Of a DNA stretch of 62,257 bases, positions 12,666 to 30,163 are shown piece after piece. This DNA comes from a virus (taxonomy: Duplodnaviria; Caudoviricetes): IMG/VR virus record IMGVR_UViG_3300020156_000030, positions 1 to 62,257 of that record; one strand, 5' to 3'. Under the pieces are notes generated by a model. That model saw only the letters and a program-made list of their open reading frames with translations, ran no database searches and was not told where the DNA came from. The translations under genes and the position numbers were made by a program. How positions within the stretch are numbered: position 1 is the stretch's first letter; the number at the start of each line of letters is the position of its first letter.

Positions 12666-12673
12666 GTATCTCG

Positions 12674-13660: not shown

Positions 13661-13686
13661 CTTGTGGCCTCAATGATGAAGAGGGT

Positions 13687-14736: not shown

Positions 14737-14984
14737 TTCTTAGCGTCCTCCAAACGGACGACGGTGCCCTTGGCGTTCTGCAGGAGGCGCAGGATGTCCC
14801 GGGCTTCCTGAGCCCGGCCCTGAGCCGTCTGGAGATTGGGAAGGGGAGCGCCGACCAATTCATCCTTGCGCTGGTCCACGTGCGCTTCAAGAGCCGACAT
14901 CAGCTTCCGCCATCCTGTGGGAGAAGACTGCTGGAGCTCATTAGCGGCGCGGACGAGCGCTTCGTTGCCCTTGGAGACGGCCAT
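14733..14984 (-). CDS. Hypothetical protein
   Basis: 83-aa helical ORF with a QGRAQ motif, between portal and scaffold. Confidence 0.7.
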   Translation of the reverse strand: MAVSKGNEALVRAANELQQSSPTGWRKLMSALEAHVDQRKDELVGAPLPNLQTAQGRAQEARDILRLLQNAKGTVVRLEDAKK

Positions 14985-14996
14985 GTGGGTGGTATC

Positions 14997-15200
14997 TCAG
15001 ACCGGCTTGGCAGCCTTGACGGACTGCTGGCCGAACATGCGGGTGGAACCGCCCGACACCTTGATCGAGCTGTTACCCGCGCCGCGCGTATTGGCGGTGA
15101 CGCCCGGCTTCTGGGCGACGACGCCCGACTTGCCGAACATCGAATTGCTACCACCCTTGGCGAACTCGGCGTTCCGGGTGGAAATCTGCTTGTCCTTCAT
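14997..15200 (-). CDS. Small basic Gly-rich hypothetical protein
   Basis: GGAGG RBS; repeated GGS..MFG motif. Confidence 0.6.
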   Translation of the reverse strand: MKDKQISTRNAEFAKGGSNSMFGKSGVVAQKPGVTANTRGAGNSSIKVSGGSTRMFGQQSVKAAKPV

Positions 15201-15223
15201 CCTTACCTCCAAGGTAACCGGGG

Positions 15224-17272
15224 TTAATGGACCCCGCCAGCGACCTGCACGCGCGGCCCCATGTCGTTCGTGGACGTGGGACCGGGCTGTGCTCCCTGCG
15301 CCTGAGCTCCGGCCTCAGCCTGCTGCTGAGCCTGCATGGCGGCCTGTATCTGGGCCTGCTGATCCGGGTCGGGGACAATCTCCTCGCCGGGCAGTCCGAT
15401 CGTGTTGGCGACCGAACGTAGCACAGCCGTGCGGCCTTTGACACCGATGATCTGCGCGTCCACGGGGTTGGCCGTGATCGACAGGAACTCAAGCTGGCGG
15501 GCACGCTGCGTCTCGCGCTGGACAGCTACGTTGACGCCCATGACGCGGATCGCTTCGTCACCCCTGAGTATACCCGTCGTGTCGGTCAGCATCAGCATGT
15601 CGAACAGCGACGACAGGAGAGGGTCCATCACGTCGCGGTCGATGTTGGCGGCGACCGTCTGAAGGATTTTCGAGGCGTTACCCATCAGCATGGCCAGACC
15701 GGCGGCCGTCCGCCCGGCACCGCCGGTCGCCCCGGAACCCGTCTGGTATTTCGGGATCGCGGAGAGGTCATCGGCGATGTTGTTGAACTCGCGATAGACG
15801 GCGAGGAGCTCGCCGGCGTTGGAGCCGGGCTGGAAGAAGCTGATGGGCGGCTGGGTGTTGTTGCCCATGTCGTCGGAGGTCGTTAGCCAGCGCTTCCACG
15901 GATACATCTCCTCCGGGTCCTCGCCAGCGGCCAGACGATCGGCGTTGATGACCACCTGCGGGCCGGAAGAGATCGAGAGGTTGTTGACCAGCGCCCGGAG
16001 GGTGGCGTTGCACACCTCCTGAATGTCCGAGAGGATGTCCGGCAGGCCGTTGCCCACCGGCGTTCCCGGCACCTTCTCGAAGCTCGTCACGAAATAGGGG
16101 TGGCGCTTGCGCGGGGAGGGCGAGCGCTGGACCTTGATGACATGGCGGCCGATGAGCCAGACCTGAACCATGTAGTCACGCAGCGGGTCCTCGACGGCGA
16201 ACCCATACTCCTCCAGCATCCGCCCCTGCACGTTGCCGTGGTATTCGAGGCAGGTGATCAGCCCGGAGGTGTTGAAGACAGGGTTTTCCCGGTTCTCGTA
16301 TTGGGCTCGTTCACTGTCCGTGGTGTCGTAATTGTCGTTGAGCCCCCCGCGCCCATGTTCATCGAGCACGGCCCGGATGGCGTCATGGTCATATCCGGGG
16401 AGGTCCAGAAGATCGTTGAGGTCAGCGCGGGTCAGCCGGGTGCGCTCTATGACGGCGGCATCCTCGATGTCGGCGACCCCGGGGGTCCAGTAGAGGTCGA
16501 ACGGGGAAATACGGTTCCAGCACAGCCGGGGCTTCTCCACCGTCGCCGGCTGCCCGCTCGACCAGTCCACGCTCGGCACCATGCGGACGACAGGCCCCTT
16601 GATGCAGGCGAACGGGAATAGGGGCAGATCAACCAGAAACTCGGCGAGCGCCTTGTAGAAGCCGCCCTCCTCAAGCATCTCGTCGATGCGGTCCTGAGCG
16701 ATCTGGGCGCGCTTGGCGGCCTGTTTCTTCTCCGCTTGACGCGCAGCGTCTATGAGCTGGGCCACGCGGTCACGGATGGCCCCGGGATCGGGCTGCGGCC
16801 CGCCCAGAGCGGCGAGCTCCTGAAGCTCCGACATGACGAGCTGCTGGATAACCCCGGTCACGTCAGGCGGAACATCAGGGTCAGCGGGCGGGTGAATGCC
16901 CCACGAGCGGTCAGGAGCCAGATACACGTCGCGCAGGAGCGAGCTGGCTCCTCGGCACTTCATGGCGATGATGCGAGCGTATACCTCGCTGCCGCCGAAC
17001 TTCTTGATCGCGGCCAGCGTTTCCGCATCATACTCGCCGGCAAAGGCGCGCATGGCGGCCAAAAGCCGGTTCGACCAACCAGCCTTGGCGTCGTTCCTAT
17101 GTCTCTGGAAGTGCTCGTATTCTCTGCGGATGAACCCGGCAAGCTGGGTCGTGTCCACCTCGGGCTCGCGGAGAGCGAGCGCACGACTCTCATCGCGTGC
17201 CTTGATCTGCTCCTCCAGACGAGCTGGAGGAATGACGTTGAGCACACCCATTCCGGCGTGGGTATCGACCAT
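15224..17272 (-). CDS. Portal protein
   Basis: 682 aa with ISPFDLYWTP and GNGLPDILSDIQ..NA.LR...NN...S.GPQ motifs and a Gln-rich tail; first gene of the head operon. Confidence 0.85.
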   Translation of the reverse strand: MVDTHAGMGVLNVIPPARLEEQIKARDESRALALREPEVDTTQLAGFIRREYEHFQRHRNDAKAGWSNRLLAAMRAFAGEYDAETLAAIKKFGGSEVYARIIAMKCRGASSLLRDVYLAPDRSWGIHPPADPDVPPDVTGVIQQLVMSELQELAALGGPQPDPGAIRDRVAQLIDAARQAEKKQAAKRAQIAQDRIDEMLEEGGFYKALAEFLVDLPLFPFACIKGPVVRMVPSVDWSSGQPATVEKPRLCWNRISPFDLYWTPGVADIEDAAVIERTRLTRADLNDLLDLPGYDHDAIRAVLDEHGRGGLNDNYDTTDSERAQYENRENPVFNTSGLITCLEYHGNVQGRMLEEYGFAVEDPLRDYMVQVWLIGRHVIKVQRSPSPRKRHPYFVTSFEKVPGTPVGNGLPDILSDIQEVCNATLRALVNNLSISSGPQVVINADRLAAGEDPEEMYPWKRWLTTSDDMGNNTQPPISFFQPGSNAGELLAVYREFNNIADDLSAIPKYQTGSGATGGAGRTAAGLAMLMGNASKILQTVAANIDRDVMDPLLSSLFDMLMLTDTTGILRGDEAIRVMGVNVAVQRETQRARQLEFLSITANPVDAQIIGVKGRTAVLRSVANTIGLPGEEIVPDPDQQAQIQAAMQAQQQAEAGAQAQGAQPGPTSTNDMGPRVQVAGGVH

Positions 17273-17334
17273 GAGCCGTAACTAGACTACAACGAAGAGA
17301 AGAACAAGCCCACCCGTTATGATGTGAAGGCGAC

Positions 17335-17817
17335 ATGGACAAAGCCAACGTAGCCCTCCTGCCACGGACTGACGCTCTATACGTGAAGCTGGCCCGCGAG
17401 ATCGCGATCGACCACCACGAGCTCGGGGACATCCTGACACGCTATGGTGTGACGGAGCTGGAATGGGAGCGGATCAGGACGGACCCCCGGTTCCAGTCCC
17501 TCCTGAAGACCGAGATCGAGGCGTGGCAGAGCGCGGTCAACACGCATGAGCGCACCAAGCTCAAGGCCGCAGCCATGATCGAGGAGTGGATGCCCGAGGC
17601 GATGGGGCGGCTGCACGACAAGGGCGAGAACCTCTCCGCCAAGGTCGAGCTCGGCAAGCTCATCGCCCGCATCGCGGGCATGGGGCTGAACAACGCCGAG
17701 ATAAACGGCGGCGTTGGCGAGAAATTCTCGGTGACCATCAACCTCGGCTCCGACAACCAGCTCAAGTTCGAGAAGGAAGTTACCCCGAAGGTAATCGAGG
17801 CCACCCCGAATGACTGA
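17335..17817 (+). CDS. Terminase small subunit (putative)
   Basis: Helical 160-aa ORF ending FSVTINLG, upstream of TerL. Confidence 0.65.
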   Translation: MDKANVALLPRTDALYVKLAREIAIDHHELGDILTRYGVTELEWERIRTDPRFQSLLKTEIEAWQSAVNTHERTKLKAAAMIEEWMPEAMGRLHDKGENLSAKVELGKLIARIAGMGLNNAEINGGVGEKFSVTINLGSDNQLKFEKEVTPKVIEATPND

Positions 17818-18058
17818 GACCCCGACGCCCCCGGACGCCGAGAAGACCCAGCCGAGCTGGTATGTTCACAGCTACGATCTGGAGAACCACCTCGTCCGCA
17901 TGATGGACGGGCATATCGCCACCATCGACTCCATGCTCGACATAGACGGCGACGAGACGGATGACCCCGAGTTCGCCATTGTCGCCGTCGCTCACCACCC
18001 CGTCGGGTTCTGGTTCACCCTCGATCTGCAGAACACGATCAACTTCCCGGTGCATTGA
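17810..18058 (+). CDS. Acidic hypothetical protein
   Basis: Overlaps both the terS and terL ends (coupled); FTLDL and DIDGDETDD motifs. Confidence 0.65.
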   Translation: MTETPTPPDAEKTQPSWYVHSYDLENHLVRMMDGHIATIDSMLDIDGDETDDPEFAIVAVAHHPVGFWFTLDLQNTINFPVH

Positions 18059-19524
18059 TGACCACGATCAACTACGCCGCACCCCCGACGTGCGCGCGTT
18101 TCATGAAGAGCACGTCCTTCGGCAGGCTGATCGCCGGGCCGGTCGGATCGGGCAAGACGACGGCGTGCCTCTTCGAGCTCTTCAGGCGGGCGTGTGAACA
18201 GCAGGCGGCTCCCGACGGCATCCGCTACACCCGTTTCGCCATCGTCCGCCAGACGCTGAAGCAGATCAAGGACACCGTGCTGAAGGACATCCTCGCATGG
18301 CTTCCGGGCGTCGCCGAGTTCAAGGTCTCCGACCACACGATCTACATCTCGATCGGAGATGTTCGCTCGGAATGGCTCCTCATCCCCCTCGACAACCCGG
18401 ATGACCAAGCGCGCCTGCTGTCCATGCAGCTTACCGGCGCATGGCTCTCCGAGGCGATCGAGATGGATGTCGGCGTCATATCTCCGCTCGCCGGACGTGT
18501 CGGCCGTTTCCCCTCCGCAGCTCAGGGCGGTGCGTCGTGGTTCGGCATCATCGCCGACACCAACATGCCCCCCGAGGGCTCCGACTGGCACAAGTTCATG
18601 GAGCTGGAGACCCCGCCCGACTGGTCGATCTTCATCCAGCCCGGCGGCATGAGCCCGGACGCCGAGAACCTCGAATGGCTCACCCAGACCCCGGAGACGC
18701 TGCGCTACCCGCCCGATCATCCGGTCCGGCTGGCGCAAGGGCGCACCTATTACGAGCGCTTCATCCGATCGAACACGGCCGAGTGGTGCAAGCGCTACGT
18801 CCACGCCCAGTATGGCGATGACCCCTCGGGCACGGCGGTGTTCCGCGACAGCTTCCGCTTCAGGGGCGACGACGGACGCCCTTTCCACGTCGCCGACACT
18901 CTGGAGCCGGTCTACGGCCACCCCCTCATCGTCGGACAGGATTTCGGCCGCGACCCGTGGAGCATCATCTGCCAGCTCGACCACAATGGCAGGCTGCTCG
19001 TTCTCGAAGAGGTCGAGGCGGAGGACATCGGGCTGGAGCTGCATTTGGAGCGCTCGCTACGCCCCCGGCTGATGAACCAGCGCTATTTCGGCCGCCCGGT
19101 CGCGCTGATCGGCGATCCGGCGGGCAAGGCCAAGGACAGCATCTACGAGGAGACCAGTTTCGACGCCATCAAGCGCATGGGCTTCATGACTTTCCCCGCC
19201 CCCACCAACGATCTGGACCCGCGCATACGGGCCGTGGAGGCGTTTCTCATGGGGCAGCGTAACGGTGGACCGGCTATCGTCTTCGACCGGCAGAGGTGCC
19301 CCACGCTCGTCAGGGCTATGTCAGGCGGCTACCGCTACGCCAAGACCCGCAGCGGGCAGCGCAAGCCCACGCCCGAGAAGAACAAGTTTTCCCACCCCGT
19401 GGACGCGCTGCAATACGCGGCGCTGGCGGCTCATGGTGGTATGGTCACCACGCTCCTCGCCCGCAAGCTCCAGAGCAAGCCGAGAGTGGTGCGGGAGCGT
19501 ATGCCCTCCCGCGCTTGGACCTGA
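18055..19524 (+). CDS. terL: Terminase large subunit
   Basis: Walker A GPVGSGKT, Walker B-like AWLSEA, coupling motif DTN, nuclease motifs GQDFG, IGDPAG and SHPVDALQY. Confidence 0.92.
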   Translation: MMTTINYAAPPTCARFMKSTSFGRLIAGPVGSGKTTACLFELFRRACEQQAAPDGIRYTRFAIVRQTLKQIKDTVLKDILAWLPGVAEFKVSDHTIYISIGDVRSEWLLIPLDNPDDQARLLSMQLTGAWLSEAIEMDVGVISPLAGRVGRFPSAAQGGASWFGIIADTNMPPEGSDWHKFMELETPPDWSIFIQPGGMSPDAENLEWLTQTPETLRYPPDHPVRLAQGRTYYERFIRSNTAEWCKRYVHAQYGDDPSGTAVFRDSFRFRGDDGRPFHVADTLEPVYGHPLIVGQDFGRDPWSIICQLDHNGRLLVLEEVEAEDIGLELHLERSLRPRLMNQRYFGRPVALIGDPAGKAKDSIYEETSFDAIKRMGFMTFPAPTNDLDPRIRAVEAFLMGQRNGGPAIVFDRQRCPTLVRAMSGGYRYAKTRSGQRKPTPEKNKFSHPVDALQYAALAAHGGMVTTLLARKLQSKPRVVRERMPSRAWT

Positions 19525-19526
19525 GC

Positions 19527-19763
19527 TCAGCCGACATACTCTCCCGACAGGAGCTTGTGCTTGAACAGTTCGCACAGATAGACGGCGAACTGCATGTCTC
19601 CCGTGGAGCAGGCCGCATAGGACTTCCCGTTGGCGTCCACGCCCAGCACAAGGACCTCTCTGAGGCCCTTGGCACCATCGAGAACCTTGTCCACGGGAAC
19701 AGGGCCATCGGTCATGTTCTCAGCCGTCCTCTCAACCATCTTCGCACCCGTCATTTTCGGCAT
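19527..19763 (-). CDS. Hypothetical protein
   Basis: GAGGAGG RBS; VLVLGVDANGKSYAACS pattern. Confidence 0.65.
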   Translation of the reverse strand: MPKMTGAKMVERTAENMTDGPVPVDKVLDGAKGLREVLVLGVDANGKSYAACSTGDMQFAVYLCELFKHKLLSGEYVG

Positions 19764-19765
19764 CG

Positions 19766-20047
19766 TCAGTCCTCCTCGTCGAGTTCGCGCATCAGGTGGG
19801 CCTGTCCACACGCGGCCGCACCCAGAAGCGCGTAGGTAATCACGCCGGCGGTGCCCACTCTGGCCGACCCGTTGGGAAAGCTCGTGGCGAGAACGAGGCC
19901 ATCGAGGTCCCCCGCCTTCGCACGGGCAAGCGCTTCCTCCAGCAGCTCCACGATAAACGGATCGGGGTGACCGGGAGAGGCGAGCTTGTGCCCGGCCAGA
20001 TCGAACACCTCGGCGGGGGTAACGGGCCTGTTAGGCTTCATCGTCAT
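19766..20047 (-). CDS. Hypothetical protein
   Basis: LEEALARAKAGDLDGL motif; start uncertain. Confidence 0.6.
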   Translation of the reverse strand: MTMKPNRPVTPAEVFDLAGHKLASPGHPDPFIVELLEEALARAKAGDLDGLVLATSFPNGSARVGTAGVITYALLGAAACGQAHLMRELDEED

Positions 20048-20345
20048 ACTCCAGCATTGGTGCGATGGCAGCAATTTCGGGGTGGCGCTTCATGATGAGG
20101 AACACGGGAGCGGGTATGCTGCCGCGCTCCGAGTTGCACTTCACGCAGGAGGCAACGACGTTCAGCAGTGTGTATAGGCCCCCTTGGCACCCCGGTATCA
20201 GCCTGTCGAGGGTCAGCGCATGGGGCGGGGGAGGAACACCGCGTTTTCGCCCTGCCCAGTCCGGGTGAAGCACTCGGTCGCACCAGAAACACCTCCGGCC
20301 CGACCTGATGAGCGCATCGTAGCGCAGCGCACTTCGGGACCCCAT
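20031..20345 (-). CDS. HNH-like zinc-finger endonuclease (possibly degenerate)
   Basis: CFWC...TLDRLIP..QGG...NVVASCVKCN. The usual DH is DR here. Confidence 0.65.
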   Translation of the reverse strand: MGSRSALRYDALIRSGRRCFWCDRVLHPDWAGRKRGVPPPPHALTLDRLIPGCQGGLYTLLNVVASCVKCNSERGSIPAPVFLIMKRHPEIAAIAPMLEYDDEA

Positions 20346-20593
20346 CAGCTCTTCCCGGCAGTCTTCCGCTTGGTTCTGGCAGGCTTGGTTCTGGCGGGGG
20401 GAGGTTCAGCGGGCTTGGGGCTCGGCTGCAGGACGAAGTTGTATACCCCCTCGTCGTCGATGAAGTCCTTGACCCCGCAACCATATTCCTTCTGCAGCTC
20501 GGCGATGCGCTGCTGGGCATCCTCCATCCGCTCGTAATCGCGGATTTCCATCTGCTGCTCGACGCCACGATCGAGAATGACACGGTGGATCAT
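20345..20593 (-). CDS. Hypothetical protein
   Basis: AGGAGG RBS; coupled to both neighbours. Confidence 0.6.
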   Translation of the reverse strand: MIHRVILDRGVEQQMEIRDYERMEDAQQRIAELQKEYGCGVKDFIDDEGVYNFVLQPSPKPAEPPPARTKPARTKRKTAGKS

Positions 20594-20766
20594 CAACCCC
20601 TCCTTAGGGCGGCATACACGACCAGCCCGAGAAACAGCATCAGCCAGCACACAGCGAAGAAGAAGGTCATGACGCCGGCACGGAAGCGGTAGGCGCTCGT
20701 CCACGCCCACAGGGCCAGCGGCAGAGTGGAAACGAGGATCAGCCATAGAACCACTTGGGGGTTCAT
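20593..20766 (-). CDS. Small two-TM membrane protein
   Basis: MNPQVVLWLILV...FFFAVCWLMLFLGLVVY. Confidence 0.55.
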   Translation of the reverse strand: MNPQVVLWLILVSTLPLALWAWTSAYRFRAGVMTFFFAVCWLMLFLGLVVYAALRRG

Positions 20767-20879
20767 TTCCGGCCTTTCGAGGATGTGCCCTTCACGAATT
20801 TCAACCTCAGGGCGATGATGATGAGCGTGACGACGATGGCGGTGAGGGTGACCCATCCGGCAAGTGTCAGCTCCTCCAT
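20763..20879 (-). CDS. Small single-TM protein (38 aa)
   Basis: MEELTLAGWVTLTAIVVTLIIIALRLK with an AAGGA RBS. Confidence 0.5.
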   Translation of the reverse strand: MEELTLAGWVTLTAIVVTLIIIALRLKFVKGTSSKGRK

Positions 20880-20899
20880 CTGGCGGGTCCTTCGTAGGA

Positions 20900-20935
20900 T
20901 GGGCACGATGGCAGAGAGGAGGGGGTGTGTCAAGT
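20900..20935 (-). promoter_or_regulatory. Possible sigma70-type promoter for the short leftward operon
   Basis: TTGACA on the minus strand at about 20928-20933; the -10 element is weak. Confidence 0.3.
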
Positions 20936-21079
20936 TACAATGGTGTAATTCTGGAGTAACAAAGTGGTTTGGTGGTCTAGGTATTCTCAGGGTCCCTGAG
21001 AAGGCGGGGGCGGCCCCCCCTCCCCCCTGTCCAGTTACCCCCGGGGGTAACCCCCTCCCCATTGCTAGGTCAGAGGATG

Positions 21080-21526
21080 GCGAGCGCAATACGGCGCAAG
21101 CGGCTCAAACCCCGATACTCGGGTTGGCAGCATGGGGCTGCCGGTTCTTTGCACCATGAATAGCTGGCCCTGCGTGACGGGCGCGCCCTCCAGCCGGGCG
21201 GACTTATGAAAAAGGCTGGGGTTAGGGGACCCCCACGGGTGCGATACGTGGGAACCGGGGCCTAATCGCTAAGGTGAAGTCACTGTGACGGGTGACGCTG
21301 CCTAGCGAGCTGCGCGAGCAGTGTGAAGCCGAAACCCTAATCGCGACCCGCCTCATGCGGGAAAGGCTAGGCCCTTCGACAAGTCATCGTTGGTATCATC
21401 AAACCACTGAACCATTACACGGTGCGATTGTGTGATGGTTCTGACGAATTGCGCCCTCGACTGGGGAAACCCGGCCGGGGGCGCGTCCTTTGCATGGTTA
21501 CTCTTCGGAGTAACTTTCCAAAGGAC
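21080..21526 (+). ncRNA. Large structured RNA candidate (unassigned family)
   Basis: About ten consecutive hairpins with GCAA, GCGA, GAAA and UUCG tetraloops, G-U pairs and a predicted pseudoknot, in a region with no credible ORF. Confidence 0.6.
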
Positions 21527-21540
21527 GGTGGAGAGCTATC

Positions 21541-21831
21541 ATGGCACAAAATCCGGTTCGCGCCAAACTGGCGCTATCGCAAATCCGCGAAGCCGGCCGG
21601 CTGGAATATACCAAGTCGGCTTATCTCGCCAAGCCCGACTTGGCCGCCATGCGTGATGCGGTCAACGCCTATCAGGGCAAGGTGACCAAGCTTCCGCCCC
21701 AGCCGACCGGGCCGAAGCCCCGCTATTGCAAGGCCGGCTATCGCCCGATGCAAGGCGCACTGGCAAAGCAGGAAGCCGACTGGCGGGCCAATGGTTGCAG
21801 GCTAGGGCAAGTCGTGGTTGTGGGCCGATGA
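21541..21831 (+). CDS. Basic hypothetical early protein
   Basis: GGAGAG RBS; QGKVTKLPP motif. Confidence 0.65.
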   Translation: MAQNPVRAKLALSQIREAGRLEYTKSAYLAKPDLAAMRDAVNAYQGKVTKLPPQPTGPKPRYCKAGYRPMQGALAKQEADWRANGCRLGQVVVVGR

Positions 21832-22059
21832 CCATCAGGCGAACGGCGGCGCGGCGGCGCTTCCTATTCCGCAGCACAAGGTATGGCGGCGAGCTCCGGC
21901 TTGGCCATTGGACCATCAGTTGGAGGAGTTACCCGGCTAGGTAACGCAATGGTTCGCTGGTAGGGTCGGACCCTACCAGCGGCTTTACAAATGTCGATGG
22001 TATTATCTATCATCGGTATCTGTAAGGCCATGGGTAGGCAGGGCTGGAAACGGCAGTCG

Positions 22060-22245
22060 TGGGTAGGCTATCTATATCTATAATTCATAATGTTCTATTA
22101 ATCATTTAGATAAGCCCCCCCATAATCTACCCAAAATCTATAAACCTATTATCTACCCTTCATTTCTGTAAAAGTGGATGGTAGATTTAGGTGGGGTGTA
22201 TCAAATTGGTAGGGATAATAGGATAATAGGCATGGTAGATGGGCC
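22060..22245. other. AT-rich region with inverted iteron-like repeats (origin or packaging-site candidate)
   Basis: Appears to be the most AT-rich stretch of the window. ATCTA(C) repeats on the left face GTAGAT/GGATAATAGG repeats on the right. Confidence 0.5.
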
Positions 22246-22292
22246 TAACCCATTGAACCATAACGACATTCCAGAAAAAACCCCCTACCATC

Positions 22293-22325
22293 TTGACAGC
22301 ACATTGCCCGGTCATTTACATATAC
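22293..22325 (+). promoter_or_regulatory. Putative sigma70 promoter
   Basis: TTGACA-17 nt-TTACAT, upstream of ATG 22355. Confidence 0.4.
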
Positions 22326-22354
22326 GGTGGATAGTAGGACATGGGTTTGTAAAA

Positions 22355-22771
22355 ATGGCCTTCAAATGCCCTTCATGCGGCGGCAAGACTGCCGTTCGTA
22401 GCACGCAAGAGACAACGAGCCCGCAAGGGCGTTACATGGTCAAGCGTTACAGAACATGCCTCTCGTGCGATGGTAGGCTAGATACAGCCGAGATCGTGAT
22501 AGGTGCAATCCGCCACGGGCAACGCTCAAAAATCGCCCCTTCCGTTGATAGTTACAAATCCGGGGGGCTATCAATACCGCCAGTGCCGGGCGTGGTTCAT
22601 TGCCCTGCCTGCACAAACGCCCATAACCACGTCACCTCGACAGAACGTAGGCCCGACGCCTACGAACGCCGGCACAAGTGCCGTGTGTGCTCGACCGGGT
22701 TCTACAGTTACACCAGTTACACCGGCGATGGCGTTCAGGTCCAGAGACGCAAGCGCCCGCGCCCCACATAA
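22355..22771 (+). CDS. Tandem zinc-ribbon protein (NrdR-N/Ogr-like), putative regulator
   Basis: Two CPxC...R.R.CxxC..F/L.T/S modules. Confidence 0.6.
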   Translation: MAFKCPSCGGKTAVRSTQETTSPQGRYMVKRYRTCLSCDGRLDTAEIVIGAIRHGQRSKIAPSVDSYKSGGLSIPPVPGVVHCPACTNAHNHVTSTERRPDAYERRHKCRVCSTGFYSYTSYTGDGVQVQRRKRPRPT

Positions 22772-22846
22772 TAAGCCGGCGAAACAACGCTGCGCACTCA
22801 TCGCCCCGTTACTTCAGGGGTAACACCAGCCGTAGGAGAATGTGAC

Positions 22847-23593
22847 ATGAACCAGATCAGCGCCAATGCCGGCTCCAACATCAAGTCGGCTCTCGACGAG
22901 CTCATGAAGGACGTGCGGCAGTTCGGCCGTGAGCAGGCCCTCGGCGAGGACGCCAAGGCTAAGTTCGCCCTGCGGGTTACCCGCGCCTCTGCCGACGGCA
23001 TCATCGACTTGGAGAAGAAGCACGGCAAGGACCCGAAGACCGCCAAGGATGACATCGACGTTCTCTACAAGGAGTATGTCGATCAGTATTCGTCCAAGTC
23101 GCTCCACGAGCACAAGGGCATCGTGCAGAAGACCTCGGAGATGCGGGTCTTCGTCAAGTTCGGCGCGATGACGACGTGCGATCCGGTCACCGTGCTCAAC
23201 CGTGCGGTCATCCTGCGCAACGAGCTCGCCAAGGGTGACACCAAGGTGAAGTCGGCGTTCCCGTCCTACCTCAACGTCGCCCGTGCACAGTTGGACAGCG
23301 ACCAGCCGCTGACCGATGACCAGATCAGGGAGTGCGTCGTGCCCGGCGAGCCGGCTGAGAAGACGCTGGAGAAGGAGCTCGGGCGCATCGCCAAGGCGCT
23401 GGAGGCCATCATCACCGGTGAGAACAAGGCCGGGCTGAAGTGCCAGAGCGAGAACGTGATCGCCGCGCACGACGCCATCACCCGCGAGATCGCCACGATG
23501 GTCAAGCAGCGCGAGCTCATGGACCTCCTGCAGAAGGCCGCTGACCTCGGGCTCAACGTCTCCTCCAACGTGCCGGAGCAGATCGCCGCCTGA
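22847..23593 (+). CDS. Abundant early hypothetical protein (248 aa)
   Basis: AGGAG RBS, strong codon bias, followed by a long hairpin. Confidence 0.8.
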   Translation: MNQISANAGSNIKSALDELMKDVRQFGREQALGEDAKAKFALRVTRASADGIIDLEKKHGKDPKTAKDDIDVLYKEYVDQYSSKSLHEHKGIVQKTSEMRVFVKFGAMTTCDPVTVLNRAVILRNELAKGDTKVKSAFPSYLNVARAQLDSDQPLTDDQIRECVVPGEPAEKTLEKELGRIAKALEAIITGENKAGLKCQSENVIAAHDAITREIATMVKQRELMDLLQKAADLGLNVSSNVPEQIAA

Positions 23594-23606
23594 GACTGCA
23601 CGGCCG

Positions 23607-23650
23607 AAGGGGAGGGGGCTTACCTCAAGCGGTAACCCTCTCCCTTTCCA
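23607..23650 (+). terminator. Long hairpin (terminator or processing site)
   Basis: GAAGGGGAGGGG-GCTTACC tcaagc GGTAA-CCCTCTCCCCTTTC. Confidence 0.5.
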
Positions 23651-23681
23651 CCACCCAACCACCGCACCACCGGAGGACAAC

Positions 23682-23876
23682 ATGAGCAGCCACCATCGCT
23701 ACCATCTCCCCTGCCCCTGCGGGTCCGGGAAGCTGTCGTGGTGGGAGAACGATGCCCGTGGCATCCCGCTCTTCCGCGCCTGTGACGATTGCGTGGGCGA
23801 GAAACTGTTGCGCTACCGCCCCGATGTCCTGTCCGATCCGAACTACTGGTCGGACGAGCCGATCAACCCCGAGTAA
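23682..23876 (+). CDS. Small Cys-rich (Zn-binding) protein
   Basis: CPCGSG...DARGI...CDDC with a GGAGG RBS. Confidence 0.7.
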   Translation: MSSHHRYHLPCPCGSGKLSWWENDARGIPLFRACDDCVGEKLLRYRPDVLSDPNYWSDEPINPE

Positions 23877-23948
23877 CAGGGAGGGTCTTTCAGCGGATGC
23901 GCACTCATCATGTGCATCTCCTCGACGACCTTACCACTGGAGGTAACG

Positions 23949-24245
23949 ATGGACGAGCACAAGGTCTGGGTGGAGGAGAATGTGTCCGCCCTTGATTTCC
24001 TCGCATGGCTGGAGATGCAGCCCGGCGGCAAGGAATATAGCTACACCGCAACCCAGTCCTGTGCCTTCGCCCTCTACCTGAAGAGCAAGGGGCTCGATCG
24101 CGTCTTCGTCGGCAGCGCGCTGTGGTCCATGTTCGGGGTCGATACGGACTTTCAGATACCGCCCCACGTGAACGACGCTGTGTGGAGGCACCCCCGCACT
24201 TTCGCCGCCGCAGCTCGCCGGCTGCGTTCTTACCTCGGAGAGTAA
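23949..24245 (+). CDS. Hypothetical protein
   Basis: GGAGG RBS; FLAWLE.QP...Y......CA.A.YL pattern. Confidence 0.65.
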   Translation: MDEHKVWVEENVSALDFLAWLEMQPGGKEYSYTATQSCAFALYLKSKGLDRVFVGSALWSMFGVDTDFQIPPHVNDAVWRHPRTFAAAARRLRSYLGE

Positions 24246-24248
24246 CTC

Positions 24249-24635
24249 ATGAACGAGCAGCAGATTTTCGATACCGTCGCCGCTCATCTCTTCAGGCAGG
24301 GGCGGCGGGCCATGGACGGAAGCGGCTGCCGCTACCGCAGCGGCGACGGGCTCAAGTGCGCCGTCGGCTGCTTCATCCCGGATGAAGCCTATGACCCCGA
24401 CATCGAGGGTGTCTCGTGCTATGACCTCAGGGTCAGAAGCCTTCTCCCCTTCAAGCCCGATGACTATACGCTCGCGCTCCTGCACATGCTTCAGGGCACC
24501 CATGATAACAGGGAGAACTGGGTGGACACGCAGGCGATGCGGGAAGCGCTGGCCCGTGTGGCTGAGCGCTTCAAACTGAGCTTCGTCCCCGAGAACTACC
24601 AGTTCAGCGACCGGCGCTGGCCTCTGTGCCGCTGA
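24249..24635 (+). CDS. Hypothetical protein, paralog A1
   Basis: QIFDTVAAHLF.QG..CRYR..DGLKCAVGC..LQ..HD. Confidence 0.8.
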   Translation: MNEQQIFDTVAAHLFRQGRRAMDGSGCRYRSGDGLKCAVGCFIPDEAYDPDIEGVSCYDLRVRSLLPFKPDDYTLALLHMLQGTHDNRENWVDTQAMREALARVAERFKLSFVPENYQFSDRRWPLCR

Positions 24636-24662
24636 GGGTCGCTTACCCCGAGGAGTAACCGA

Positions 24663-25067
24663 ATGTCACCACAGGAGATTTTCGATACCGTTGCTGCGCA
24701 CCTGTTCACGCAGGGGCGGCAGGCCGTCAGCAGGGACGGCACCTGCCAATACCGCACCGAGGACGGTCTCAAGTGCGCCGTCGGCTGCCTCATCCGGGAT
24801 GAGGATTACAATCCTGAGATCGAGGACCTCCCGGCCTTCAATACCCGCGTCCTCGACCGGCTCCCCTTCAAGGTGGACGTGGAGGTGGAGGTGGAGGTGG
24901 ACGGCCCCGAGTTTTCAGTGTGCAGCCTGCTGCAATCGCTTCAGCGCGTGCATGATCACGAGCCGGATTGGGCGAGCACGCACGCGATGCGGACAGCGCT
25001 GGCCTATGTGGCTGAGCGCTATCACCTCAAGTTTATCCCCGAGAACTACCAGTTCAGCGACCGCTGA
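24663..25067 (+). CDS. Hypothetical protein, paralog A2
   Basis: Tandem paralog of 24249-24635. Confidence 0.8.
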   Translation: MSPQEIFDTVAAHLFTQGRQAVSRDGTCQYRTEDGLKCAVGCLIRDEDYNPEIEDLPAFNTRVLDRLPFKVDVEVEVEVDGPEFSVCSLLQSLQRVHDHEPDWASTHAMRTALAYVAERYHLKFIPENYQFSDR

Positions 25068-25122
25068 GGGTCGCTTACTTCGGGGGTAACACCACCCAAC
25101 CACCTCACCATAAGGAGAGAGC

Positions 25123-25401
25123 ATGAGCGCAGAGGGTAAGAAGAAGCGCGGCGAGAGCGGCAAGAAGAACGCCGAGAGCTCGCCGTTCCGCATGAACGGT
25201 CGCCCCGCCGATTGGGAGGCTCGCAGCCGTGGCTGCTTCCAGACGCGCGGCGCTGCCTCGTCGGGTAGCGTCACGATGCGCGGCCTGCTCGGTGGCATGA
25301 TCGCCGAGCGCATGGGCTACGCCATGCCGGGTATGCCCGGCATCGAGTATACGTTGGAGCACGCTGCGTCCCGGGTGACGCACCCCGCCCTGACGTTCTG
25401 A
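25123..25401 (+). CDS. Basic hypothetical protein
   Basis: TAAGGAG RBS; strong codon bias. Confidence 0.7.
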   Translation: MSAEGKKKRGESGKKNAESSPFRMNGRPADWEARSRGCFQTRGAASSGSVTMRGLLGGMIAERMGYAMPGMPGIEYTLEHAASRVTHPALTF

Positions 25402-25489
25402 GCCACAAGACGTGAGGGGGACCTGAGTATGTCCTTAAACTGCTCGCCTTACCCTGAGGGTAAGCGCGCACTCATTTCGGAGCGGTCTC

Positions 25490-25750
25490 GTGGATGATGG
25501 TGTAGACTGGCACACGGTGCTGTCGATCGCACGCTGGCGGCTGGCTTGGTGCGAGCAGGCTCGGAGAGAGCTGCTTGCTAAAGTTCATAGCAGCGATGAG
25601 GTCCCGAAGTTGCACCTGAGGTATGCCAAGCTGACAAATAGCATAAACACGCTGGAATATGCAATCTGGCTGGCAGAGCACAGGTTATACGAAGCAATGT
25701 CGCATCTTACTGTTGGCAAACGCTTGCTGGGGCCGCTGGATTGGATGTGA
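25490..25750 (+). CDS. Hypothetical protein, paralog B1
   Basis: IARWRLAWCEQA...PLDWM. Confidence 0.6.
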   Translation: MDDGVDWHTVLSIARWRLAWCEQARRELLAKVHSSDEVPKLHLRYAKLTNSINTLEYAIWLAEHRLYEAMSHLTVGKRLLGPLDWM

Positions 25751-25780
25751 TTACCTCGGGGGTAATACAGGAGAGGTCTC

Positions 25781-26053
25781 GTGCGTGGGGTTTACAACTG
25801 GCGCGTGATAGCGGAAATCGCACGATGGCAGCTGGCTTGGTGCGAGCAGGCGCATGAGGCGCTACTCGCCGTCGGATACCACAGCAATTACCACCACATC
25901 AGGCTGAGCAGGCTTGCCGATGATATACGGGCTTACCGCTTCATAATATCCATGGCGGACCGTAATATCACTGATAGGAAAAGCAGACTCAAGGGGATAG
26001 GCATTATCCCTATTCATCATTTGACGATGAAGAGTCCGCTGGAGTGGATGTGA
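25781..26053 (+). CDS. Hypothetical protein, paralog B2
   Basis: IARWQLAWCEQA...PLEWM with an AGGAG RBS. Confidence 0.6.
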   Translation: MRGVYNWRVIAEIARWQLAWCEQAHEALLAVGYHSNYHHIRLSRLADDIRAYRFIISMADRNITDRKSRLKGIGIIPIHHLTMKSPLEWM

Positions 26054-26080
26054 TTACCTTGGGGGTAACTGGAGGAGAAA

Positions 26081-26527
26081 ATGGCTAAGATGAACGTCGC
26101 CGGCCTCGAATACGTGGCCACCTGCATCGAAACCGCAGCTCTCGCGCACAAAGACATCGGTTTCAATATGGGCTATGTCATTACGACGGCTGGCGGCTTC
26201 GCCGATGACAAGTCCGGCCATGGGTGTGGCACCGTCGCCTGTATCGCTGGGTGGACACTCGCCCTGCTGGACGAGAAGGGTAAACCACGGAAAAAGCCGC
26301 TCAGCCCGAGTAGCTTGTATAGATTGTTCGAGGGGGCATACGACCCTGTGAGGGATGCTAGGATGCGCCTTGGGTTGACGATCGACCAAGCGGATCAGTT
26401 GATGACCCCCGCCCCATTTGGTCAGCCGATCTGTAATACACGCTGGATGCGCGGCATCCCGCTGCTGGAAGCGGTCGAGGCCATCCGTGGGCTGATCGAC
26501 ACCGGCGAAGTCAAGTGGAAGGAGTGA
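26081..26527 (+). CDS. Hypothetical protein with a CGTVACIAGW motif
   Basis: GGAGGAG RBS; the motif is common in small phage proteins. Confidence 0.75.
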   Translation: MAKMNVAGLEYVATCIETAALAHKDIGFNMGYVITTAGGFADDKSGHGCGTVACIAGWTLALLDEKGKPRKKPLSPSSLYRLFEGAYDPVRDARMRLGLTIDQADQLMTPAPFGQPICNTRWMRGIPLLEAVEAIRGLIDTGEVKWKE

Positions 26528-26532
26528 ACGAT

Positions 26533-26709
26533 ATGGACATGCAAGTGTGGGGCTGGCCCCAATGGACGATGGTAGCGCTCCTTTTTCTGGGCGCGTTCGT
26601 TTCAATAGCACTGCATGGGGAGCAGAGAAAACCCCATGACGCCCCGACAGCCCTGTTGTCGATCCTGATACACGCCATCCTCCTCTACGCCGGGGGGTTC
26701 TTCGGTTAA
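26533..26709 (+). CDS. Small two-TM membrane protein
   Basis: WGWPQW...HG..R...LLYAGGFF. Confidence 0.7.
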   Translation: MDMQVWGWPQWTMVALLFLGAFVSIALHGEQRKPHDAPTALLSILIHAILLYAGGFFG

Positions 26710-26725
26710 CTCCACGAGGTAACCC

Positions 26726-26971
26726 ATGTCGCTTCTCAGAGGGCAGGAGTGTATCAAGGGTTTGGTCAAAACCCCCTTCGGAATATATTGCTGGTATGTT
26801 GGCATCGCCCCTACACTAAGACTCCTAACAGAAGAAGAACAGGTGTCTTTGGTTAGGTGGAAGGTCAGTATGCTGAGCGCTATTCTGGAGGACACTGACA
26901 GTCCTCATATAAAAAACAGGCTGGAGGAATGGGAGATGTGGCTGGAGCGGCTTACGAAAAGGCCCTACTAA
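26726..26971 (+). CDS. Hypothetical protein
   Basis: GAGG RBS within a palindrome variant; lower GC. Confidence 0.5.
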   Translation: MSLLRGQECIKGLVKTPFGIYCWYVGIAPTLRLLTEEEQVSLVRWKVSMLSAILEDTDSPHIKNRLEEWEMWLERLTKRPY

Positions 26972-26987
26972 CCCCACGAGGTAACCC

Positions 26988-27317
26988 ATGGCGATTGGTA
27001 AGGCACGCCGGCTGTTTAGATGGCATCTGAACAAGACGCGCGGTGGGGTTATGGGTCCCATGCCCATCGACGATCTAGAACGTGCCACCATGTTCGGCAT
27101 CAGTCTGCTGAAGTGGATAAAGGACGAGGCCACGGACCCTGTGGATATTCTTTGGGTCCATCACGCTACTTCTGCGTGGACGAATTACCTTAAGGGGGTA
27201 AGGGAGAAACAACATGAACGAGCTCGTGCTTTGGAGCACCGTGCTGGTGGTGGTGCTGTTCGCCGTGCTGATCGCGCAGAGCGTTCTCCTCTGCACGAGG
27301 AAACATCTGAGGCGTAA
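26988..27317 (+). CDS. Hypothetical protein
   Basis: GAGG RBS; its 3' part overlaps the next small ORF. Confidence 0.45.
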   Translation: MAIGKARRLFRWHLNKTRGGVMGPMPIDDLERATMFGISLLKWIKDEATDPVDILWVHHATSAWTNYLKGVREKQHERARALEHRAGGGAVRRADRAERSPLHEETSEA

Positions 27318-27342
27318 GCCTTGGGTTTACCCGAGGAAGTAA
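27214..27342 (+). CDS. Small single-TM protein (42 aa)
   Basis: GGGAG RBS; MNELVLWSTVLVVVLFAVLIAQSVLL. Below the ORF-track cutoff. Confidence 0.5.
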   Translation: MNELVLWSTVLVVVLFAVLIAQSVLLCTRKHLRRKPWVYPRK

Positions 27343-27343
27343 C

Positions 27344-27637
27344 ATGGTCACCCCGACGATGACGTTCCTCGGTGAGGCTATGGACAGAGATTGCCTCATC
27401 GAGGAACGCAAGAGGCGGCTATTGAATGTCCTGCGGATAATAGAGTGGCGCATCGAATGGCAGCTTGCGGGGCGAAGTGAGATGCAGAGAGCACTACAAA
27501 ATGAGGCCAAGAACTCTACTGAACTTCGCATTAGATGTTTGCGGGTTATACACCGCATCGATGTAGAAATCGCTCGACTTGAGGCTTCCAAACGCGCCAC
27601 CCTCAAGGTTATAGAGTCCAACGTGAGGCACTGGTAA
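27344..27637 (+). CDS. Hypothetical protein (distant paralog B-like)
   Basis: IIEWRIEWQ helical motif. Confidence 0.5.
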   Translation: MVTPTMTFLGEAMDRDCLIEERKRRLLNVLRIIEWRIEWQLAGRSEMQRALQNEAKNSTELRIRCLRVIHRIDVEIARLEASKRATLKVIESNVRHW

Positions 27638-27651
27638 GGAAGGGGGCAAAC

Positions 27652-27816
27652 ATGTTCTGGCTCATCATCGTTCTCATCGTCATCGCCGCCCTCCTGCATT
27701 TCATCTGGGTGGCGCTGGAGAAAATCGCCATCGAGCTCATGCGGATCAACGGACAGATAGAGGCGCGCACTCATGCCACACCCGAAACCAGCTACCCCCG
27801 TTACTCCAGAAGGTAA
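27652..27816 (+). CDS. Small single-TM protein (54 aa)
   Basis: MFWLIIVLIVIAALLHFIWVAL with an AAGGGGG RBS. Confidence 0.55.
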   Translation: MFWLIIVLIVIAALLHFIWVALEKIAIELMRINGQIEARTHATPETSYPRYSRR

Positions 27817-27820
27817 CGGC

Positions 27821-29504: not shown

Positions 29505-29561
29505 CGCTTGTGTAACGTTACCATATGTGTTACCACGTCTTGATTACCAGACGAGGTAACC

Positions 29562-29876
29562 ATGCTCCCAGAGCCACCCACCGGAATTAAGCACGACGAA
29601 GGCAAGCTCCCCCTGCACCTGCTGCCCTTCGATGCGCTGGAGTGCATCGCCGAAATCCTCGACTTCGGCATGAAGAAATACGCCCCCCGTAATTGGGAGA
29701 AGGGCATGGACTGGTCGCGGGTCTATCGTGCCACCCTGAGCCACATGTTCAAGTGGTGGATGCGAGCCGGACCGGACGAGGAGACGGGGAAATCGCACCT
29801 ATGGCACGCTGGCTGCTGCATCCTCTTCCTCATCACCTACGAATACAGGGGCATCGGACGCGACGATCGCCCCTGA
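29562..29876 (+). CDS. dATP/dGTP diphosphohydrolase domain protein (DUF5664-type)
   Basis: GIKHDEGK..L.LLP...FG.KKY..RNWEKG...D.ETG.SHL.HA.C...FL. Confidence 0.85.
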   Translation: MLPEPPTGIKHDEGKLPLHLLPFDALECIAEILDFGMKKYAPRNWEKGMDWSRVYRATLSHMFKWWMRAGPDEETGKSHLWHAGCCILFLITYEYRGIGRDDRP

Positions 29877-29906
29877 GCTTACCCCAACAAGTAACAGGAG
29901 CGAAGC

Positions 29907-30119: not shown

Positions 30120-30163
30120 GTAACCCGCCGAAGTAACCACCCACCCAACAGGAGAAAGACACT

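Follow-up and report, generated by a model that had tools for sequence, protein, structure and literature searches.

Leader RNAs that control the host RNA polymerase are textbook elements of lambdoid phages and T7; outside the phages of enterobacteria, to our knowledge, hardly any are known. The boxB hairpin of lambda, 15 nt in length, binds N and has a GNRA-like loop of 5 nt, while the T7 leader is noted for an RNase III site and not for a pseudoknot. HK022 put, which consists of two simple stem-loops, and Bacillus EAR are RNAs that confer processive antitermination independently of proteins. H-type pseudoknots serve as aptamers or operators in the preQ1 and SAM-II riboswitches and in the T4 gene 32 leader, and GOLLD, ROOL and phi29 pRNA are large phage-associated noncoding RNAs contained in Rfam. 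In the literature, which was available in part, no comparable structured early-leader element of a phage was found, and no paper was found under the phage names RHph_TM27A, RHph_TM29 and RHph_TM3_14A.

The DNA analysed here (the window, 62,257 nucleotides) comes from a 62 kb soil phage which infects alphaproteobacteria. Its divergent gene arms are separated by a 660-nt gap without a conserved ORF, a layout of gap and arms matched in the Rhizobium phage RHph_TM27A, and the terminase genes precede the leader region. As judged from the sequence, an untranslated 5' leader of about 550 nt (roughly 20990-21540, plus strand) probably heads the first rightward early transcription unit. Sequence conservation extends upstream to about 20935, beyond the 447-nt candidate RNA at 21080-21526 from which the study started. 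With nhmmer, Block A (Table 1) was matched in 20 of the 79 relatives, always in one orientation, and the 20 sequences were aligned. Since the consensus scan reported no sigma-70 match at Block A, its promoter role is only inferred. At the position of the Block B palindrome, other relatives carry a G-rich sequence complementary to the C tract, and a strand test of the Block B hairpin gave a mixed result for plus versus minus. The CTGTCCA block lies 243 to 581 nt ahead of the first ORF (17 sequences). The small ORFs at 21062-21163, 21292-21435 and 21422-21685 had no relatives in 79 loci, and short ORFs ending at TGAATAG or starting at the ATG of the linker were not conserved when inspected by eye.

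Table 1. Features of the leader region and its surroundings (window coordinates).
Feature	Position	Strand	Remarks
Leftward -35-like TTGACA	20936-20931	-	in Block A
Block A, AT-rich, promoter-like, conserved	20935-21010	+	ends in palindrome TCTCAGGG-T-CCCTGAGA
Block B	21010-21075	+	C-rich tract, invariant CTGTCCA, palindrome TTACCCCCGGGGGTAA, then CCCCATTGCTAGG
GAGC/GCTC hairpin	21082 / 21103	+	GCGCAAGC at 21094 (GCAA loop); present, in MFE fold
CCCGA/TCGGG hairpin	21111 / 21119	+	present, in MFE fold
GGCAGC/GCTGCC hairpin	21126 / 21137 (to 21142)	+	present, in MFE fold
boxA-like element	21144-21154	+	GTTCTTTGCAC; 12 nt upstream of module
Conserved RNA module (model R1)	21156-21238	+	R1 score 80.8 bits
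TGAATAG	21157-21163	+	conserved; part of module
P1 (GCCC/GGGC)	21167-21170 / 21179-21182	+	present; part of R1
P2, 5 bp (CGCCC/GGGCG)	21184-21188 / 21196-21200	+	present; part of R1; loop TCCAGCC at 21189, GGCTGGG at 21214
H-type pseudoknot	21184-21219	+	P2 loop CCAGCC (21190-21195) pairs with GGCTGG (21214-21219)
Linker, A-rich, 13 nt, conserved	21201-21213	+	GACTTATGAAAAA; between P2 and pseudoknot strand
Lineage-specific centre	about 21222-21345	+	thermodynamic support only
TTAGG/CCTAA	21222 / 21261 and 21336	+	present
CCCACG/CGTGGG	21232 / 21247	+	present; inside TTAGG/CCTAA
TCGCTA/TAGCGA	21266 / 21303	+	present; encloses GTCAC/GTGAC
GTCAC/GTGAC	21279 / 21285	+	present
CTGC-GCGA-GCAG	21310	+	CTGCGCGAGCAG; present
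AGCC/GGCT	21327 / 21365	+	present
CCCGC/GCGGG	21347 / 21357	+	present
CCCGC/GCGGG hairpin, then conserved AAAGGCTAGGCCC	21347-21374	+	from alignments; position of relatives' P7
Hairpin, 12-15 bp	21409-21441	+	present, in MFE fold; without comparative support
G+C-rich hairpin, GAAA loop, then TCCTTTG	21451-21484	+	terminator-like, weak U tract
Gene-start hairpin copy, TTCG loop	21485-21526	+	around TTACTCTTCGGAGTAA; generic to genome
ORF1, first early ORF, 96 aa	21541-21831	+	17 K+R versus 6 D+E
Perfect inverted repeat, 13 bp	21955-21981	+	after ORF1
Promoter-like site	21984-22013	+	consensus scan

All helix arms of the original prediction were recovered at the positions given in Table 1. The minimum free energy (MFE) of the candidate on the plus strand was -203.9 kcal/mol, with z-scores of -4.68 for the plus and -4.56 for the minus strand (100 dinucleotide shuffles, plus strand). 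The candidate is thus strongly folded with respect to shuffled sequence, but it is unremarkable within this genome: 24 control segments of 447 nt across the genome had a mean z of -1.23 (sd 1.66), and four of them (21800, 27000, 29600 and 32200) reached values from -3.45 to -5.03, while the candidate, scored alongside them, had -4.31. With 4 of 24 controls at -3.45 or below and the two strands equal, the folding z-score was dropped as evidence. Folding energy is neither distinctive here nor able to tell the strands apart; support above chance comes from the relatives, in which P1, P2 and the pseudoknot covary, and that for the remaining helices of the window is thermodynamic only. The idea of one RNA unit of about 450 nt had to be abandoned, as the 447 nt are not conserved as a single RNA and the centre (about 21239-21345) varies by lineage. 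What the relatives have in common with the candidate is limited to about 21144-21238 and 21345-21375. Across lineages, only about 110 of the 447 nt are conserved; at the position of 21082-21142, relatives carry hairpins of other sequence, as seen by eye.

The pseudoknot consists of a 5-bp stem, a first loop of 1 nt, a second stem of 6 bp and the 13-nt linker. It is preceded by P1, whose stem has 4-5 bp and whose loop has 8-10 nt in the carriers (8 nt in the window). In eight of nine sequences all six pairs of the pseudoknot are Watson-Crick, formed by eight different strands, with changes on both sides at four of the six pairs; the pairing is therefore kept by compensatory changes, and the H-type pseudoknot predicted at 21184-21219 is borne out by covariation. 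When the helices of the module were compared with 500 shuffles (8 sequences), 93.2% of the cells were paired versus 73.0 +/- 2.7 in shuffles, and double-change cells numbered 25 versus 8.3 +/- 2.2, neither value being reached by any shuffle; slid controls were 32-54% paired. Covariation among homologs, which the original prediction had called for, thus exceeds every shuffle for the module helices. In seven of nine sequences P2 is closed by a G.U pair, which would be A.C on the minus strand, and an overall tally of the helices gave nine G.U pairs on the plus strand versus two positions pairing only on the minus strand, in favour of the proposed plus-strand RNA. These results indicate that the module is very probably a real, conserved structured RNA of the plus strand. 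The many conserved single-stranded motifs include the linker GACTTATNAAAAA, TGAATAG and AAGGGCTAGG; a search by eye for conserved alternative pairings that involve the 3' hairpin was negative. The 5-bp stem, 1-nt loop and 6-bp stem resemble those of the preQ1 and SAM-II riboswitches and the T4 gene 32 leader, and the A-rich third loop could likewise sit in the groove of stem 1, but here the leader is about 500 nt long and the pseudoknot lies far from the ribosome site.

The covariance model R1, built from six seed sequences, found three further sequences (E values of 1e-15, 2e-11 and 6e-18), giving nine in all. Two of them lie in phage genomes (G001 and G002) without a relative of the TerL of this phage, and the third on an alphaproteobacterial MAG contig; a single copy per genome was found in each of the three genomes searched. 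A location near the genome end was considered and dropped, as the module occupies 12311-12391 in G001 (60,152 nt) and 34868-34948 in G002 (47,489 nt). Over 83 sources (806,052 bases), R1 found nothing beyond the six seeds at E < 0.2, and it misses variants seen by eye in RHph_TM27A (L161) and in L024. The variant of RHph_TM27A has a pseudoknot with a loop of 8 nt and a linker of 8 nt, while in L024 the pseudoknot-like pairing was seen by eye only and a constrained canonical search returned none. A divergent version of the module appears to occur in cultured Rhizobium phages. The module itself stands at the head of the early operon in one alphaproteobacterial genome as well as in three or more phage lineages with distinct terminases.

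Other searches recovered little. With 20880-22300 as query, blastn returned no match from the phage collection, a single-sequence nhmmer search with 21080-21540 found two loci only, and a six-sequence profile recovered just those sequences and their duplicates. No ORF1 relative was found in viral contigs, ORF1 of L024 as query matched only itself, and a metagenome scan with TerL returned closest relatives at about 79%, none nearer. Two DNA patterns yielded one and zero new loci, respectively, and a further pattern yielded 11, three of which (L169-L171) are chance matches. Over the whole window, Rfam 15 gave no match at the gathering score, including GOLLD, ROOL, HEARO and pRNA; within 20850-22300 the best row scored 19.8 bits versus a gathering score of 47 (E 8.7), and the leaders of nine relatives gave nothing. 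No ribozyme family was matched in the window, riboswitch models gave no match and ARAGORN found no genes, in agreement with the earlier statement that hallmarks of tRNA, tmRNA, RNase P and introns are absent. The module shares with GOLLD, ROOL and phi29 pRNA its occurrence in phages, several helices and a pseudoknot-type pairing, but differs in having no Rfam match and in the small conserved share of the 447 nt. Like put and EAR, it is a structured RNA, probably just past a promoter, that possibly acts in cis on its polymerase; 20850-22300 gives only chance-level Rfam rows at E <= 10.

PMC13753749 and PMC5725501 give the boxA consensus as UGCUCUUUAACA in E. coli, AUGAUCUUUGAAA in B. subtilis and GYTCTTTAANA, and state that boxA loads NusB:S10 and that Nus factors block Rho-dependent termination. 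The boxA-like element of the window strays from this consensus after the G (GCAC), although the consensus may not be that of the host. Of 10 leaders, 7 carry the motif G[CT]TCTTT in the 130 nt that precede the module, versus 0.14 expected, a count that does not represent seven independent events as the ten leaders are related. It stands at -12 or -13 in four of the seven and is absent from the other three leaders (L049, L041 and L024); the forms found in relatives include GCTCTTTGACA and GTTCTTTGACAA.

The arrangement resembles that of the lambda nut site and the rrn leader: a small G+C hairpin (P1) begins no more than about 15 nt after the boxA-like element, both stand at the start of an early operon, and many relatives have a small basic ORF next. 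Unlike in these systems, the loop of P1 has 8 nt, a pseudoknot follows and there is one copy per genome, and P1, with its stem of 4-5 bp and loop of 8-10 nt, does not have the form of the boxB of a lambda-type nut site. A boxA match, GCTCTTTAA, also occurs in T7 at 813-821, between the host promoter A3 (750) and gene 0.3 (925). The early leader of T7 is a long untranslated stretch that the host polymerase makes before it reaches the first early gene, and this leader would be of the same kind, but the blastn search found no homology of sequence or structure between them. T7 later employs its own RNA polymerase, while none was found among the scanned proteins of this phage. The only candidate, a 2469-aa protein with a weak match (E 8.7e-7) to a virion RNA polymerase PHROG and to no PDB polymerase, was rejected.

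A 151-nt contig from a soil RNA library covers 21100-21250 at an identity of at least 99%, where carry-over of DNA is possible. Three other contigs lie on structural and ATPase genes; a lack of contigs from RNA library X3 over ORF1 or at other sites has no evidential value. Canonical intrinsic terminators were not enriched in 20800-36000 (15 versus 10.3 +/- 3.3 in shuffles), nor were sigma-70 promoters in the early region, where promoter-like sites were no commoner than in shuffles.

In the centre of the leader, TTAGG/CCTAA around CCCACG/CGTGGG occupies the position of P4 of the relatives, whose centre is made of other helices (P4 and P5) that covary among themselves. P7 was paired in 38 of 42 cells in six relatives. 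The hairpin at 21451-21484 belongs to a fold of -30.8 kcal/mol and is followed by the tail TCCTTTGCA; it falls short of an intrinsic terminator (at least 5 T in 8), and no plus-strand site was called there. In all 19 leaders, however, a hairpin of -15 to -34 kcal/mol lies at most 140 nt from the first ATG, often with a T-rich tail. Another hairpin before the terminal one, with the loop CAANGCCNA, is conserved in five relatives but was set aside as it is unclear in the window. The UUCG-capped stem at 21485-21526, which encloses the ribosome site of ORF1, is present as predicted, but it is not specific to the RNA: it is one of 64 gene-start copies matching TTACN{5,12}GTAA in the window, versus 0.61 expected.

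ORF1 matched no Pfam or PHROG family. It shares an N-terminal motif with the corresponding small, basic ORF in 10 of 19 relatives, and its fold is unreadable because the confidence of the Atlas model is low (mean pLDDT 0.41). Since the ORF that follows the leader in L167 and L168 is different and not of the ORF1 family, a dedicated N-like partner is not general. Downstream of ORF1 comes an AT-rich repeat region.

Of the readings originally proposed, the one that agrees best with the anatomy is a complex leader at the start of the first early transcript. We favour, at a probability of about 0.4, a leader that is an elongation-control element of the antitermination type acting on the host RNA polymerase. 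The host polymerase would transcribe the leader, the boxA-like element would load NusB-NusE (S10), and P1 with the pseudoknot would form a platform that keeps the elongation complex termination-resistant, aided by host Nus factors and, perhaps, a factor of the phage. Neither Rho-dependent nor intrinsic termination would then stop the polymerase on its way through about 500 nt of untranslated RNA, the terminator-like hairpin of the leader and the hairpin downstream of ORF1. A need for antitermination does not follow from the terminator scan, in which intrinsic terminators were not enriched and the hairpins at 21451-21484 and 21955-21981 were not called.

The strong hairpin before the ORF1 ribosome site in all 19 leaders would also suit the end of a stable noncoding RNA that is made early and acts in trans as a discrete species of about 450-550 nt, reaching from the early promoter to 21451-21484 and serving as a sponge, decoy or scaffold for a host or defence factor, with ORF1 expressed by read-through. 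The frequent T-rich tails, the persistence of the module across lineages with differing downstream ORFs, its numerous conserved single-stranded motifs and, weakly, the RNA-library contig speak for such an RNA. We nevertheless consider it rather unlikely, as the U tract in the window is weak, the scan calls no terminator, and the module is invariably upstream of an ORF in a shared orientation. Unlikelier is a pseudoknot that controls the translation or stability of ORF1 as an operator or aptamer for a protein or small ligand. Its classical H-type geometry, the conserved A-rich linker, the enclosure of the ribosome site in a hairpin and the small, basic product are in keeping with this, but about 320 nt separate the pseudoknot from the ribosome site, the downstream ORF belongs to another family in L167 and L168, riboswitch families gave no match, and the ribosome-site hairpin is generic to the genome.

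Inverted repeats of a DNA element, such as a packaging site or terminal repeat, an origin or operator arrays, could mimic RNA helices, and the position after the terminase genes, the palindromes of Blocks A and B, the equally good folding of the minus strand and the AT-rich repeats after ORF1 are compatible with one. A covarying pseudoknot (8 sequences) with an arm nested in another loop is not expected of protein-binding palindromes, the P2 closing pair would be lost on the other strand, and G001 and G002 carry the module though no relative of TerL was found in them, so that we judge a DNA element very improbable. The consensus scan also called a promoter-like site at 21632-21605 and a terminator-like site at 21233-21218 which might delimit an antisense RNA, whose strand has the z-score of -4.56. 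As such promoter-like sites are as frequent in shuffles, the called terminator stem has five pairs only and the G.U pairs favour the plus strand, the probability of an antisense RNA appears slight.

With the elongation-control leader as the preferred reading, a further and more tentative proposal is that the boxA-like element, P1 and the pseudoknot make up a new RNA structural class common to several otherwise unrelated lineages of alphaproteobacterial phages, either an RNA that reprograms the host RNA polymerase by itself, as put and EAR do in processive antitermination without proteins, or a stable early noncoding RNA acting on a host or defence factor. The module is supported by covariation, pseudoknotted and outside every Rfam family, and cultured Rhizobium phages with a probable divergent version make its function directly testable by infection. 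Should it work as a device for antitermination or against Rho, it would reveal how alphaproteobacterial phages secure early transcription without a polymerase of their own; if it acts in trans, it would be a new early RNA for host takeover.

The virus record of 62,257 bp is complete, and the candidate RNA lies in a 660-nt gap (20881-21540) flanked by leftward ORFs and by the first rightward ORF of the early region (ORF1). Between the terminase gene and 20880, the few ORFs are on the - strand and non-conserved. The closest isolates are the Rhizobium phages RHph_TM27A, TM27B, TM29 and TM3_14A (57.8% identity in the large terminase, TerL), and TM27A has an identical layout with a gap of 680 nt. 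No phage RNA polymerase was found among the proteins scanned, the sole related match being a weak one of the 2469-aa virion protein to a virion RNA polymerase PHROG (E 8.7e-7). This protein also contains an InPase domain (PF18823, residues 952-1087, E 1.2e-39), matches phrog_37402 and a DarB-like antirestriction PHROG with its C-terminal half, and resembles the C-terminus of the solved portal chain 9b41_L over residues 965-1096. At two sites, 22797-22825 and 27770-27791, the contigs of the phage are interrupted in both DNA runs, which suggests repeats or strain variation there.

Features of the window that bear on the candidate RNA and its setting
Feature	Position	Strand	Remark
Portal gene	15224-17272	-	structural
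Tail protein genes		-	structural
Small ORF	from 17335	+	start of rightward genes
Large terminase gene	18055-19524	+
Block A	20935-21010		AT-rich, promoter-like
Block B	21010-21075		C-rich tract, invariant CTGTCCA, palindrome
Candidate RNA	21080-21526	+	447 nt
boxA-like element	21144-21154		GTTCTTTGCAC, 12 nt 5' of module
Conserved module	21156-21238	+
Terminal strong hairpin of leader	21451-21484
TTACN{5,12}GTAA copies (examples)	21498-21513, 24230-24245, 27327-27342, 39296-39310
ORF1	21541-21831	+	first early ORF
Replication genes	past candidate, up to 49449	+
2469-aa virion protein gene	49956-57365	-	structural

Every arm of the helices named in the original prediction, which described a densely structured RNA of ~450 nt, was found where it had been placed. 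The minimum free energy of the + strand was -203.9 kcal/mol (z -4.68), and the - strand gave z -4.56. In a control, 24 genome-wide windows of equal length (447 nt) averaged z -1.23 (sd 1.66), with the candidate at -4.31 in the same run. Four of these windows, all in the early region (21800-22246, 27000-27446, 29600-30046 and 32200-32646), reached z -3.45 to -5.03, and none of the four had an Rfam match. The strong fold is therefore real, but in view of these controls and of the similar values for both strands it is neither distinctive in this genome nor strand-specific. A hairpin that recurs throughout the genome, TTACN{5,12}GTAA, contributes a share of the energy; it is present in 64 copies in the whole window (0.61 expected), about one per kb. 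The majority precede a start codon by 2-30 nt, their 3' arm (GGAGGTAA or GGGGTAA) containing the Shine-Dalgarno sequence, and the element, also carried by relatives, looks like a hairpin enclosing the Shine-Dalgarno sequence of most genes. Among its copies are the last predicted helix (21485-21526) and a palindrome at 21035-21050.

A TerL search gathered 79 viral and 80 metagenome loci, none closer than ~79-81% over partial matches. With 20880-21560 as nhmmer query, 20 of the 79 viral loci matched, all downstream of TerL in the same orientation, and conservation was highest upstream of the candidate, in Blocks A and B. The distance from CTGTCCA to the first ORF was 243-581 nt in 17 sequences, mostly ~480-550 nt. 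No relatives were found for the small ORFs inside the region. ORF1 encodes a small basic protein with an N-terminal motif common to 10 of 19 relatives, and matched no family in Pfam or PHROG. A palindrome in Block A (20975-21000) varies on both arms among relatives (TCTCAGGG/CCCTGAGA in the window, TTTTTAAGG/CCTAAAAAA or TTTTTGG/CCAAAAA in others), and could either serve as an operator that evolves together with its protein or form a hairpin at the 5' end of an RNA. After ORF1, an AT-rich stretch (21985-22300; GC 0.53 in 22001-23000) with direct and inverted repeats (D1, D11, I2, I8, I22) and a promoter-like site (21984-22013, 10/12 matches) may be an origin or regulatory region; the relative loci L057 and L008 have similar AT-rich repeat regions after their first ORF.

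The part of the candidate that aligns with five relatives is the module at 21156-21238, consisting of TGAATAG, hairpins P1 and P2, an A-rich linker and a strand pairing with the P2 loop. Covariation was assessed on a model-based alignment of eight sequences against 500 shuffles. Standard pairs occupied 93.2% of cells (shuffles 73.0 +/- 2.7%), 25 cells were changed on both sides (8.3 +/- 2.2) and the covariation score was 0.631 (0.221), each value being reached by 0/500 shuffles. When partners were slid by 1-3 columns, 32-54% were paired. The alignment leans towards P1 and P2, to which it was fitted. The pseudoknot columns lie outside the model, and the count there is lowered by two rows that are one column off register. 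With all rows in register, the pseudoknot had 6/6 Watson-Crick pairs in 8/9 sequences, with eight different strands, and 4/6 in a copy from a metagenome-assembled genome (MAG). It has the layout of a classical H-type knot (5-bp stem, 1-nt first loop, 6-bp second stem, no second loop) with a conserved linker of 12-13 nt, GACTTATNAAAAA. Since some knot of this type arose in 22-54 of 300 trials with shuffled 130-nt segments, its weight comes from the fixed register and the compensatory changes. This covariation among homologs bears out the predicted pseudoknot.

When related loci totalling 806 kb were searched with a covariance model from the six sequences (R1), only its seeds matched. Two new viral contigs came from an IUPAC pattern based on the module; R1, not having seen them, gave one 56.7 bits (E 1e-15) and the other 43 bits (E 2e-11). 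These genomes, 99% and 98% complete, contain no relative of the window phage's TerL; one of them has two genes in common with the early region of the window, phrog_1297 (the ATPase) and phrog_1314. Scanning one genome per prokaryote species gave a single further copy (59.5 bits, E 6e-18), on a contig of 1.27 Mb from the MAG of an uncultured alphaproteobacterium, with Blocks A and B upstream, as judged by reading, and a relative of ORF1 downstream. Each genome searched has one copy. On the MAG contig, a tRNA gene (L173 2364-2437, 69.8 bits) lies ~3.1 kb from the module, which would fit an integrated prophage.

Outside the module, further helices covary among the relatives without the window (P4 paired in 33/35 cells, P5 in 20/20, P7 in 38/42; cross-sequence controls 0.40-0.48). 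The window differs from them in its centre (21222-21345), where CCCACG/CGTGGG (P4) and CCCGC/GCGGG (P7) are positional counterparts only, and support for the window-specific helices is thermodynamic only. In the window, CCCGC/GCGGG is followed by AAAGGCTAGGCCC, a sequence shared with the relatives. Each of the 19 leaders finishes, at most 140 nt from the ATG, with a strong hairpin of -15 to -34 kcal/mol that in many cases has a T-rich tail. A conserved unit exists within the predicted RNA, but it is smaller, with ~95 nt and a further ~30 nt towards the 3' end.

Rfam 15 gave no match at gathering scores in the whole window, only chance-level rows within 20850-22300 (E 2.3-8.7), nothing relevant within 20000-50000 and no match in the leaders of nine relatives; ARAGORN found no tRNA or tmRNA, in agreement with the predicted lack of known hallmarks. 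Type II hammerhead ribozymes had no match in the window. L167, the locus of another phage carrying the module, has three such matches at intervals of ~650 nt on the - strand (9666-9727, 10280-10341 and 10939-10999), located downstream of its module within the early region, at 33.6, 26.4 and 24.8 bits, all below the gathering score of 37 (E 0.003-0.6).

Upstream of the module, G[CT]TCTTT occurs within 130 nt in 7/10 leaders (0.14 expected), at -12 or -13 in four, and relatives read GCTCTTTGACA or GTTCTTTGACAA. The excerpted text of PMC13753749 gives the boxA consensus as UGCUCUUUAACA in E. coli and AUGAUCUUUGAAA in B. subtilis, and describes boxA as loading NusB:S10 and as sufficient alone for antitermination complex formation; that of PMC5725501 gives GYTCTTTAANA, with Nus factors preventing Rho-dependent termination. 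T7 carries GCTCTTTAA downstream of host promoter A3 and upstream of gene 0.3 (813-821). We infer an antitermination or anti-Rho leader: module and boxA-like element would act on the host elongation complex, and polymerase would thereby get through the hairpins of this long untranslated leader to its end. Against antitermination count the absence of the motif from 3/10 leaders and the lack of enrichment of canonical terminators downstream.

The rival readings differ in what the element would be. It might act as DNA, or as an antisense RNA; the P2 closing pair is G.U in 7/9 sequences, and over P1, P2, P4 and P5 nine G.U pairs on the + strand stand against two positions pairing only on the -, which indicates a + strand RNA, as predicted from G-U pairs. 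It might be a discrete early RNA that acts in trans and has its end at the 3' hairpin, although a consensus terminator scan did not call the hairpin at 21451-21484; or it might be an operator for translation or stability of the first gene. Transcription probably begins upstream of position 21080. In a soil RNA-library run, four contigs matched 12001-32000 at an identity of at least 99%, one of them at 21100-21250 and the remainder within a structural gene and within the ATPase gene, which shows presence in an RNA library and does not imply transcription, strand or ends.

These results show a conserved, + strand, pseudoknotted RNA module that is not in Rfam and that occurs, in several phage lineages of alphaproteobacteria, within the long leader heading the first early unit. 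We regard it as a new form of a kind already known, the phage early-leader control RNA, and it is testable in a cultured Rhizobium phage.
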